This document shows, one piece after another, positions 15,562-18,085 of a stretch of DNA of 64,000 nucleotides (the first letter of the stretch is position 1; every line of letters begins with the position of its first letter). The DNA is taken from NCBI GenBank assembly GCA_048886685.1, contig JBHLKM010000005.1:138958-202957 (forward strand), in the 5' to 3' direction. The notes beneath the pieces were generated by a model that was not told the origin of the DNA, searched no databases, and was given only the letters and a program-made list of their open reading frames with translations. Both the position numbers and the translations under genes were made by a program. Origin of the DNA: Candidatus Hodarchaeota archaeon. GTDB lineage: Archaea > Asgardarchaeota > Lokiarchaeia > Sigyniarchaeales > SOKP01.

Positions 15562-17928
15562 TTAAAGTTTTATAGATCTTGCTATGACAGATTTAAAATT
15601 CTCGAGATCATTTACCAATTTTTCAGCATCGGCATCATTGATTTTATCATCTTTACCATATTTATTCAACTGAGTTAACCAGAATTCCATTCTTCCCAAC
15701 ACAGCTTCATTATCCCCTATAATCTTCCTTACACGGATAAAAGTATCATGTAATTTATTTCGAATATTTTGTGCTTTCCATCTCAGCATACAATAATCAG
15801 ACATTTCAGCTAAATTTTGTGTGATTGCCATTACATCAATTGTTTTCTCACGTTCTTCCGATTTTATCTTCCGTATGATGTTAATCTCTTCAAATAACAA
15901 TTCTATGATTTTTGCTAAGAAACCTGTCAATTGACCAGGATTACCACACCATACCCTTACCTCTAATGATTGATTTGACTCTGAGACATAAATTCTAGTA
16001 ACTATTCTTCCCCCACCGACCTTTGCTTCTGAACAATGCCAACTTTCAGCCTCGTATTTTCCTTTCGCGTCTTTTCCTTCATGAGATGTAACTGTACTTA
16101 CTTCAAAACGTTTCAAAGTTCGAACAGCAGCTCTATACGCTAATCTTGGATCTAGATCAGCAATTAAAAAGGCACGAGCATCATTAGGAAGATCTTGAAT
16201 CGTAATCTGTACATCTTCAATAGTCGACAAACATGATACCACTAAGGGACATTTTATCTGAATTTCTTTTTTTCGTATATGTACGGTTCTTTTTTCCCCT
16301 GAGGCTGTTTTATAAATGACATCACCACCAATTGAAGAAATCCCACATTCTTTTGGTTCTAAATAAAAATCTACTCCCCTTGAATTCTTTGCTTCAATAA
16401 CAGGGATGTTAATAAGAGGTGTTTTTATTTTATAACTTGCAGGAGCATCCAAGATCACTTTTACTGAATTTATGGCCATAGAACTTTTGTTACGGACCGC
16501 TATCTTCATATGTAACTGTCCACCGACGAAATCATAATCACGAACTACCTCAATTTTACCCCCATCAGTTGGTTCTAATTCAGCTTTAATAGCCTGAGGT
16601 TTTTCTCTTGGTACGGAATATGCAGTAAAATTTCTCTTTGACATATCTATATATCCATCGATATCACCACGTGCAATAATCTGTGCTAAATTTTCTTCTA
16701 TGCTTGACTCGGTTACTCCTAATCTATTAGAGAGTTCTCTTAAAGGCATTGTTCTATAAGCTCTAGCGATTTCTTTGATTTTTTTCTCCATGTGTTTATT
16801 TGTCATGAATTCTCTTCTTTGAGTAAACAAACCTTTAATTTTACCAGTTTTGATTAATTCATGAAGGGTTTTTCTCGCTAATTCAACTGCAATTTTTAGT
16901 TTTAAAGCAAGTTTATTAAGTTCAAATAAACCCATTTCTTTAGAATAGGCTTTAATTTCATTAAAAATTTGGTCCACCGTGATTACTTCATTACCCCTGT
17001 CAGCAAAATAACCATTAATAGCTTTTGCTCTCATTAAATTAACACAGAAAGATTTTACTAGTTCGTTTGGGAGGTCTAAGTTATTTGCTAAGGTTTTTAT
17101 TGATACACGACCTTTTTTCTTAATCTCACTAATTAAATTGTCTAAAATGTACTTCTGAGTATAATATACATTTTTATCTTGTGAAAATGACCCTTTTATT
17201 TGGAATTGATTGATTAACTTATATATAACCTTTCGAGAGATTTCACCACTCATATCTAACATTACACTTAAATCCTCAACTTTAACAATCCCATCATCAT
17301 TAAACTTGGATAAAAGTCTTTCCCTCATTTCCGGAGAAATGTAATAGAACATTTGGTTTTTTTGATCAATTATCCCATATATTCTTTCTTCATCCATGTA
17401 TTTGTTTATGAATTTAATCATTTGTTCTGCAGAAATATTAAAAGAATTCATTATAGTTGAAAAATTGGTAAGAGAAGCTCTTTTTAATAAGTCCAAAAAG
17501 CAGTTAGGACAAACCTCTTTTCCAATTATATGCCTTAATTTTTTACTACATAATGTTAACCTGTTTCCTTTAATAAGATTATATCTTATTGCTTCCCTTG
17601 CTAATTTTTCCTTGGTGGGAAAAAATATTCCTGGAGTTTTTAAATAAGAATTCCACGATTCAGGGCATTGAGGATTTGTACATTCAAGATAATATTGACC
17701 TGAAGACAATCTTTCTAATCTTAAAAGGGATTTGCATTCAGGACATTCACTATCTTCAACTACTGTGCACTTAAAATTCCTTTCTGAAGCTTTTGCTTTT
17801 GAATAAATAATATTATGTTTTTTACATTCATGAATCTCGGTAGTTGCAATATGATTAATACAAAAGCTGGATTTACATTTTTCACAGGTAAAATCGATAC
17901 TTTGACTCTCACAAAACAAACATTTCAT
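15562..17928 (-). CDS. Multidomain protein: Zn fingers, tandem winged-helix/PCI domains, appendage-like C-terminus
   Basis: N-terminal CxxC/CxxH clusters; five wHTH repeats, the last PCI-like (AYRTMPLRELSNRLG...IIARGDIDGYID); beta-rich C-terminal domain. Confidence 0.65.
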   Translation of the reverse strand: MKCLFCESQSIDFTCEKCKSSFCINHIATTEIHECKKHNIIYSKAKASERNFKCTVVEDSECPECKSLLRLERLSSGQYYLECTNPQCPESWNSYLKTPGIFFPTKEKLAREAIRYNLIKGNRLTLCSKKLRHIIGKEVCPNCFLDLLKRASLTNFSTIMNSFNISAEQMIKFINKYMDEERIYGIIDQKNQMFYYISPEMRERLLSKFNDDGIVKVEDLSVMLDMSGEISRKVIYKLINQFQIKGSFSQDKNVYYTQKYILDNLISEIKKKGRVSIKTLANNLDLPNELVKSFCVNLMRAKAINGYFADRGNEVITVDQIFNEIKAYSKEMGLFELNKLALKLKIAVELARKTLHELIKTGKIKGLFTQRREFMTNKHMEKKIKEIARAYRTMPLRELSNRLGVTESSIEENLAQIIARGDIDGYIDMSKRNFTAYSVPREKPQAIKAELEPTDGGKIEVVRDYDFVGGQLHMKIAVRNKSSMAINSVKVILDAPASYKIKTPLINIPVIEAKNSRGVDFYLEPKECGISSIGGDVIYKTASGEKRTVHIRKKEIQIKCPLVVSCLSTIEDVQITIQDLPNDARAFLIADLDPRLAYRAAVRTLKRFEVSTVTSHEGKDAKGKYEAESWHCSEAKVGGGRIVTRIYVSESNQSLEVRVWCGNPGQLTGFLAKIIELLFEEINIIRKIKSEEREKTIDVMAITQNLAEMSDYCMLRWKAQNIRNKLHDTFIRVRKIIGDNEAVLGRMEFWLTQLNKYGKDDKINDADAEKLVNDLENFKSVIARSIKL

Positions 17929-18085
17929 TATTCGAAATCTTTATGGTTTTTTGAAATCTATATAATTATAAAAAAATTTAGCTTAAAATATTTTAATAGA
18001 CCAAATTTTAGTAATTTCTATTAATATGAACAATTAAAAGATAATTAACTTTTCCTTATATTCTTATAAGTTTTTGATAGATTTA

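Follow-up and report, generated by a model that had tools for sequence, protein, structure and literature searches.

The window analysed here is a 64,000-nt stretch of DNA from a Candidatus Hodarchaeota archaeon (C5:138958-202957 in a 4.4-Mb assembly of 47 contigs) with a G+C content of ~30%. The open reading frame at 15562-17928 on its minus strand encodes a protein of 788 amino acids (aa) and ~90 kDa, with a net charge of +24 and a maximum 19-residue Kyte-Doolittle hydropathy of 1.37. Its nearest relatives are encoded by Promethearchaeota (Lokiarchaeia-type) metagenome-assembled genomes (MAGs). [quoted passage not shown]

An initial annotation, made from the sequence alone, took this architecture to be undescribed. 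It has in fact been catalogued as asCOG cog.003822 (Zn, UFL1-like, Adaptin-C and Vps28-C) and treated by Liu et al. (2020/21; 10.1101/2020.10.19.343400, Fig 5a), and Asgard proteins pairing Vps28-C with an adaptin appendage and HTH/PCI domains are described by Makarova et al. (mBio 2024, PMC10936438). All parts of cog.003822 are present here, that is, N-terminal Zn domains, a UFL1-type wH region, and Adaptin-C followed by the Vps28 C-terminal region. The 788-aa protein is an ortholog of cog.003822 and shows no essential difference from it. New here are the order-wide distribution, the DDRGK1-then-UFL1 collinearity, the lack of detectable Ufm1 and UFC1, and the presence of the appendage module at the end of receptor-like proteins.

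The full-length AlphaFold2 (AF2) model, with a mean pLDDT (predicted local distance difference test) of 82.6, contains five complete wH units at residues 141-438, a disordered linker and a C-terminal module (Table 1). These units span nt 17508-16615, where five tandem winged helix-turn-helix (wHTH) units had been placed at ~17480-16620. The motifs quoted at that time all occur in the translation: IYGIIDQKNQMFYYISPE at residues 183-200 (nt 17329-17382), GYFADRGNEVITVDQI at residues 306-321 (nt 16966-17013), and LEVRVWC, beyond the array, at residues 655-661 (nt 15946-15966). In Pfam, PCI (PF01399) scores 82.6 bits, above its gathering cut-off, over three to four stretches; the best of these, 376-432, lies in wH5, so that the last unit is PCI-like as had been supposed. 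DDRGK (PF09756) reaches 55.4 bits (cut-off 27.8), its best stretch (142-220) corresponding to profile positions 102-179, and E3_UFM1_ligase (PF09743) reaches 54.7 bits (cut-off 23.2), with residues 234-436 matching profile positions 29-234. VPS28, eS25, FeoC, Zn_ribbon_Top1 and GAE_BBS1 match more weakly. When 28 orthologs were scanned, PCI was matched in all 28, UFL1, DDRGK and VPS28 in 27 each, GAE_BBS1 in 15 and EAP30 in 10.

The likeness of the array to DDRGK1 and UFL1, noted in the initial annotation from short motifs, is borne out by both sequence and fold. A profile of the family, searched against the sequences in the PDB, finds the UFL1-DDRGK1 chimera 8b9x first (E 1.2e-13), with further matches to DDRGK1 (E 1.3e-5), eS25 (E 0.002) and UFL1 (E 0.007). 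In a Foldseek search with the full-length model 8b9x is again the best match (E 2.6e-10). UFL1 bound to the ribosome comes next (8ohd_A and 8qfc_B, 3.5e-8), and generic wHTH arrays such as SelB (E 2.7e-4) trail UFL1. Residues 142-344 of the family profile align unbroken to chain residues 14-222 of 8b9x, and the DDRGK1|UFL1 junction of the chimera comes after helix 2 and before helix 3 in the intact wH2. Repeat arrays can fit more than one register; the alternative register against 8b9x scored far worse. As aligned, the array is collinear with DDRGK1 followed by UFL1, an arrangement that would fit an origin of the eukaryotic DDRGK1/UFL1 pair by fission.

The C-terminal module was modelled separately, as residues 455-788, on 111 diverse sequences (mean pLDDT 95.2). 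The model folds into a beta-sandwich and an alpha/beta platform, together with a helix of 51 residues and three further helices. The predicted Ig-like sandwich and alpha/beta platform ending in LEVRVWC are therefore where they were expected, at residues 459-558 and 563-661 of the AF2 model, beginning at nt 16554. Foldseek places first a COPI leaf chain (9qpq_H, E 1.4e-10) and the beta2-adaptin appendage (1e42, 1.2e-9), then the alpha-adaptin (1w80, 1.2e-8) and gamma-COP (1pzd, 6.6e-8) appendages and BBS9 (6vbu_9, E 3.2e-7), with BBS2, BBS7 and BBS1 below BBS9. VIA, a structure search independent of Foldseek that resolves the match domain by domain, aligns the platform with the AP4 beta appendage (2mj7, Z 13.4, root-mean-square deviation (rmsd) 2.7), the sandwich plus platform with beta2-adaptin (Z 13.1), alpha-adaptin (Z 12.8) and gamma-COP (Z 11.0), and BBS9 with model residues 4-308 (Z 12.5). 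The proposal of a C-terminus like those of AP, COPI and BBS proteins thus agrees with the best matches, which are AP2 alpha and beta2, AP4 beta, COPI gamma and beta, and BBS9, BBS2 and BBS7. The sandwich by itself matches the GGA2 GAE domain (VIA Z 10.5) and the gamma2-adaptin ear (Z 10.0), and it also resembles, at similar Z, the Ig-like domains of complement MG, transglutaminase and HAP2 and, in Foldseek, TRAP-beta. Since many Ig-like domains match equally well, it is only the unit of sandwich and platform that is diagnostic. With an array that is specifically UFL1/DDRGK1/PCI-like and a C-terminus that is a true sandwich-plus-platform appendage by Foldseek and VIA, the protein is not the one lacking this fold and bearing only generic regulator wHTH units that the initial annotation had held up as its own counter-case.

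The helical tail of the initial annotation is also present, and what was left unnamed there is a homolog of the Vps28 CTD (Pfam, VIA and PDB profile). The tail superimposes on the yeast Vps28-CTD (2j9u_A) with a VIA Z of 13.2 and an rmsd of 2.1 over 93 of 94 residues. Residues 689-778 match positions 88-180 of the Pfam VPS28 profile (E 2.3e-4; best ortholog E 8.5e-7), and four independent PDB Vps28-CTD entries match the family profile at E 0.03-0.055. This homology shifts the functional reading towards ESCRT.

A related tail occurs elsewhere in the genome. A putative selenocysteine-system protein, Sel_Asgard of NCBIfam (226 bits), is encoded at C1:218769-219344 (locus L016:1486-2193, minus strand), directly downstream of SepSecS (TIGR03531). 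Positions 50-194 of the Sel_Asgard profile match residues 643-785 of the 788-aa protein (E 1e-8), and the protein of the Sec cluster therefore shares the end of the platform, the long helix and the Vps28-C-like tail.

At the other end of the protein, 16 Cys and His residues are nearly or fully invariant in the 28 orthologs: C3, C6, C15, C18, C23, H26, C35 and H38, and also C54, C62, C65, C83, C88, C127, C140 and C143. These would suffice for four Zn sites, which may be grouped as a cross-brace (C3/C6/C15/C18/C23/H26/C35/H38), a ribbon (C62/C65/C83/C88) and a further site (C54/C127/C140/C143). The zinc fingers of the initial annotation are upheld by these conserved ligands and by a weak Pfam match to Zn_ribbon_Top1 (E 0.024); the label AN1 is carried by pattern alone. 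The first eight ligands are spaced C-X2-C-X8-C-X2-C-X4-C-X2-H-X8-C-X2-H, to be compared with the AN1 cross-brace consensus C-X2-C-X9-12-C-X1-2-C-X4-C-X2-H-X5-H-X-C. AN1 fingers in the PDB score only E 0.23-0.79, and the families tallied or listed when the protein and the 28 orthologs were scanned with Pfam do not include zf-AN1. As no profile supports zf-AN1, the AN1-like label stays at the level of a pattern.

Table 1. The gene for the 788-aa protein, its domains and adjacent features, in window positions
Feature	Residues	Position (nt)	Strand	Basis and remarks
Whole gene	1-788	15562..17928	(-)	788 codons + stop; soluble, no transmembrane (TM) segment
N-terminal Zn module	1-140	17509..17928	(-)	conserved Cys/His; grouping of ligands into sites putative
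wH1	141-197	17338..17508	(-)	DDRGK1-type wH; Pfam DDRGK 142-220, AF2, 8b9x alignment
wH2	199-257	17158..17334	(-)	intact counterpart of the composite DDRGK1/UFL1 wH; 8b9x alignment, AF2
wH3	258-317	16978..17157	(-)	UFL1-type, holds GYFADRGNEVIT; Pfam E3_UFM1_ligase 234-436, AF2
wH4	318-375	16804..16977	(-)	UFL1/eS25/FeoC-like; wing poorly modelled, pLDDT <50 at 371-375
wH5	377-438	16615..16800	(-)	best PCI-type unit; Pfam PCI best stretch 376-432, AF2
Flexible linker	439-458	16555..16614	(-)	pLDDT <50 at 442-456; 41% mean identity even in close orthologs
Beta-sandwich, GAE/Ig-like	459-558	16255..16554	(-)	AF2 pLDDT ~97
Alpha/beta platform, ends LEVRVWC	563-661	15946..16242	(-)	AF2, VIA, Foldseek
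Long connecting helix, first part	664-693	15850..15939	(-)	AF2
Vps28 CTD-like four-helix bundle	694-788	15565..15849	(-)	VIA, Pfam, PDB profile
AT-rich TATA-like element		17958..17972	(-)	candidate own promoter; ~30-44 nt upstream of the ATG, read from sequence
RHH/NikR_C-like gene, 138 aa		15031-15447	(-)	directly downstream of the 788-aa gene

How widely is this protein distributed? Full-length orthologs, mostly single-copy, are present in 121 of the 132 genomes from the same taxonomic family and, at 39-46% identity, in 20 of the 21 genomes from the order's three other families. Among genomes of the order assembled into a single contig, which presumably include those of the cultured strains, the orthologs are 43-45% identical. 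The sister families of the class have partial relatives only, and the rest of the phylum weak matches only. It is thus a near-universal, mostly single-copy gene within one Asgard order, whereas the literature calls such fusions 'extremely patchy'. Across 398 Asgard genomes the matches to PF09743 fall almost wholly on this family of ~790-810 aa, and in its own genome the 788-aa protein alone exceeds the cut-off for both PF09743 and PF09756. The 80 closest orthologs in the contig search all come from uncultured MAGs. Identity to a protein from Loki's Castle (LCGC14), labelled E3 UFM1-protein ligase by UniRef, is 79% along the entire chain. Proteins with identities above 80% bear Thor-, Odin-, Hod-, Hermod- and Heimdallarchaeota labels, and contig DATKTW010000042.1, labelled 'Candidatus Nanopelagicaceae bacterium', encodes an ortholog of 74% identity; such records probably stem from MAGs that were mis-binned or mislabelled.

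Conservation is uneven along the chain. In orthologs 40-47% identical overall, conservation across the order peaks in the long helix (664-715; 67-73%), the appendage reaches 50-64% in order-level orthologs, and wH2 and wH3 (15-33%) are among the least conserved parts.

The appendage module also occurs outside this architecture. It was found in 385 representative clusters, and most of these relatives match only module residues 5 to ~230. Among relatives longer than 860 aa (P0142-P0267), the module lies C-terminal to a predicted TM helix in 28 of 29; 17 of these TM-bearing proteins also have an N-terminal hydrophobic segment, and the domains upstream of the module are of PKD, Big, CARDB, FG-GAP and fn3 types. 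By their domain order, such long relatives look like type I receptor-like proteins with the module as a presumed cytoplasmic tail. Two of them also carry DDRGK/UFL1-type wH units. In the genome studied here there are three further carriers of the module; a single-sequence search gave one weak match, and a trimmed profile was needed to recover all three. These paralogs lie at C6:66005-68199 and C2:290672-292684: two are tandem ~340-aa proteins without a Pfam match that adjoin Prok-JAB (deubiquitinase-like) and DUF4443 genes, and the third is a 671-aa TPR-plus-appendage protein.

The 788-aa gene looks monocistronic, with 157 nt of intergenic DNA on its 5' side. Its flanking genes encode a NikR-like ribbon-helix-helix (RHH) protein, a parvulin, a DsbD_2 membrane protein and HisA. 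The NikR-like gene stays beside orthologs within the taxonomic family and in Lokiarchaeum GC14_75, though not elsewhere in the order, and NikR is likewise the next gene in the cog.003822 entry of the mBio 2024 supplement (Table S2, PMC10936438). The neighbouring genes give no functional signal.

Core ESCRT proteins are encoded elsewhere in the genome. A separate, bona fide Vps28 at C1:211468-212028 covers profile positions 3-174, and unlinked ESCRT-II candidates are present at C10:142152-142808 (EAP30/Vps22-like) and C10:143002-143307 (Vps25). The ESCRT genes are scattered, since Vps28 and the Vps22-like/Vps25 pair lie on different contigs. The genuine Vps28 gene is ringed by unrelated housekeeping genes (RNA cyclase, NUDIX, SAM (S-adenosylmethionine) hydrolase). 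Four ubiquitin-like loci above the cut-off and one below it are likewise unlinked to the 788-aa gene.

What, then, might the protein do? On balance it is probably an adaptor or scaffold in the cytosol that belongs to the Asgard ESCRT/membrane-remodelling network and docks on ESCRT-II. The Vps28-C bundle would dock the protein onto ESCRT-II and bypass core ESCRT-I, the appendage would serve as a hub for partners with short motifs, and the Zn/wH array may hold cargo or a modifier-related partner. Such a role would be that of the ESCRT-0 analogue with direct ESCRT-II binding proposed by Makarova et al. 2024 (PMC10936438). Asgard Vps28 binds Vps22 in yeast two-hybrid assays (Hatano 2022, PMC9192718).

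Several observations weigh against this proposal. The VPS28 Pfam scores of 21.5-24.5 bits are at or just under the cut-off, and helical bundles readily give a high structural Z. Identity across the order is lower in the Vps28-C bundle (28-41%) than in the appendage and long helix (50-73%). The Vps36 NZF domain to which the yeast Vps28-CTD binds is missing from Asgard ESCRT-II (Makarova 2024, PMC10936438). Among the flanking genes examined there is neither an operon nor a linked ESCRT gene, and the gene neighbourhood reflects general synteny only, confined to the taxonomic family and not retained elsewhere in the order.

Is the protein instead a UFL1-like ligase? It could be a scaffold E3 that is not itself catalytic and serves a ubiquitin-like modifier, perhaps a divergent Ufm1, at ribosomes or membranes, with the array placing E2 and substrate in the manner of UFL1-DDRGK1. 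In both sequence and fold the array is indeed best matched by the UFL1-DDRGK1 chimera together with ribosome-bound UFL1, eS25-type wH matches occur in 25 of the 28 orthologs, the sandwich resembles TRAP-beta of the translocon, and the genome has ubiquitin-like genes. Yet the UFM1 partners that the initial annotation had looked to did not turn up: neither Ufm1 (PF03671) nor UFC1 (PF08694) has a match over the cut-off in this genome with the Pfam models. PF03671 is matched in 0 of 398 Asgard genomes, a count from a model that is evidently blind to divergent homologs, as structure-defined Ufm1 homologs have been reported in nine Asgard clades (Köstlbacher et al. 2026). Because the Pfam model overlooks such homologs, the missing Ufm1 and UFC1 are only weak evidence against a UFM1 link. 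In the protein itself, positions 1-28 of the UFL1 profile, the UFC1-binding segment, are unmatched, the ribosome-binding domain is replaced by the appendage, and there is no membrane anchor of the DDRGK1 type. In addition, Picchianti et al. (EMBO J 2023) infer that UFL1 and DDRGK1 originated in Asgard archaea and that their ancestral function did not depend on UFM1. We consider a ligase scaffold of this kind unlikely, and the protein most likely acts independently of UFM1.

It is similarly improbable that the appendage and long helix serve chiefly for oligomerisation or as a coat-like device, which would pair the soluble scaffold with membrane proteins ending in the same module and act independently of ESCRT. 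The broad spread of the module, its position after a TM helix in the long relatives, the restriction of most relatives to module residues 5 to ~230, and the conservation of appendage and long helix over that of Vps28-C would all fit. However, adaptin appendages are known as peptide-motif hubs rather than oligomerisation domains, and the cytoplasmic topology of the module in the receptors is itself only presumed. Very improbable is a nucleic-acid-binding regulator with multiple wHTH units and Zn ribbons on DNA or RNA, a reading implied by the automatic ArsR/Lrp/S25 labels: weaker Pfam matches to FeoC, DeoR, AsnC-type and HTH_24 families, JGI labels, the SelB match and the net charge point that way, but the protein-interaction wH families PCI, DDRGK and UFL1 score better by 10 to 15 orders of magnitude, wH1 and wH2 carry no net charge, and a fusion to an appendage and Vps28-C is without precedent in transcription factors.

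The ESCRT-linked scaffold is the reading that we prefer. It is conceivable, though less likely than not, that eukaryotic DDRGK1 and UFL1, which have to complement each other via a composite wH, arose by fission inside one wH of such a continuous array, at a time when the array was ESCRT/coat-linked and UFM1-independent. The family is a classic Asgard eukaryotic signature protein and accounts for nearly all E3 UFM1-protein ligase 1 matches in the phylum. Knowing its partners would show how ESCRT, coat-adaptor and ubiquitin-like-ligase scaffolds were connected before eukaryotes, and the family could also explain the split winged helix shared by UFL1 and DDRGK1. Since the architecture and a functional proposal are already in print, what the family now offers is a well-defined and highly conserved target for experiments in cultured Lokiarchaeia.

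With ESCRT-I Vps28 (2j9u, 2g3k) the protein has the C-terminal four-helix bundle in common, without the N-terminal core and steadiness box that binds Vps23. PCI proteins of the proteasome lid, COP9 and eIF3 share the wH subdomain and differ in the helical repeat that precedes it, which is absent here: the PCI profile is matched only at positions 22-78 of 84, and AF2 shows bare wH units. The AP2 alpha and beta2, AP4 beta and COPI beta and gamma appendages have the same bilobal sandwich-then-platform fold (E 1e-10 to 1e-7; Z 11-13.4) at an identity of only 9-14%, whereas the hinge-linked alpha-solenoid trunk of the AP and COPI large subunits gives way to Zn fingers and a wH array upstream. The C-termini of BBS2, BBS7 and BBS9 follow the same order of GAE, platform and helical domain, and the helix that follows fits BBS9; the N-terminal beta-propeller and coiled coil of these proteins are lacking in the AF2 model.

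A further comparison is with human UFL1-DDRGK1 (8b9x, 8ohd, 8qfc). Unlike UFL1, the Asgard protein has a Zn module at its N-terminus in place of a UFC1-binding segment (the profile match begins at 29), and appendage and Vps28-C stand where UFL1 has its C-terminal ribosome-binding domain. The DDRGK-type wH of DDRGK1 is present, whereas its N-terminal membrane anchor was not found, there being no hydrophobic segment. The human pair splits a composite wH between two proteins; the Asgard protein is one chain of five complete wH units, and in both the tandem PCI-like units follow the same order, the DDRGK1 wH first, then the composite wH or its intact counterpart, and then the UFL1 wH units.

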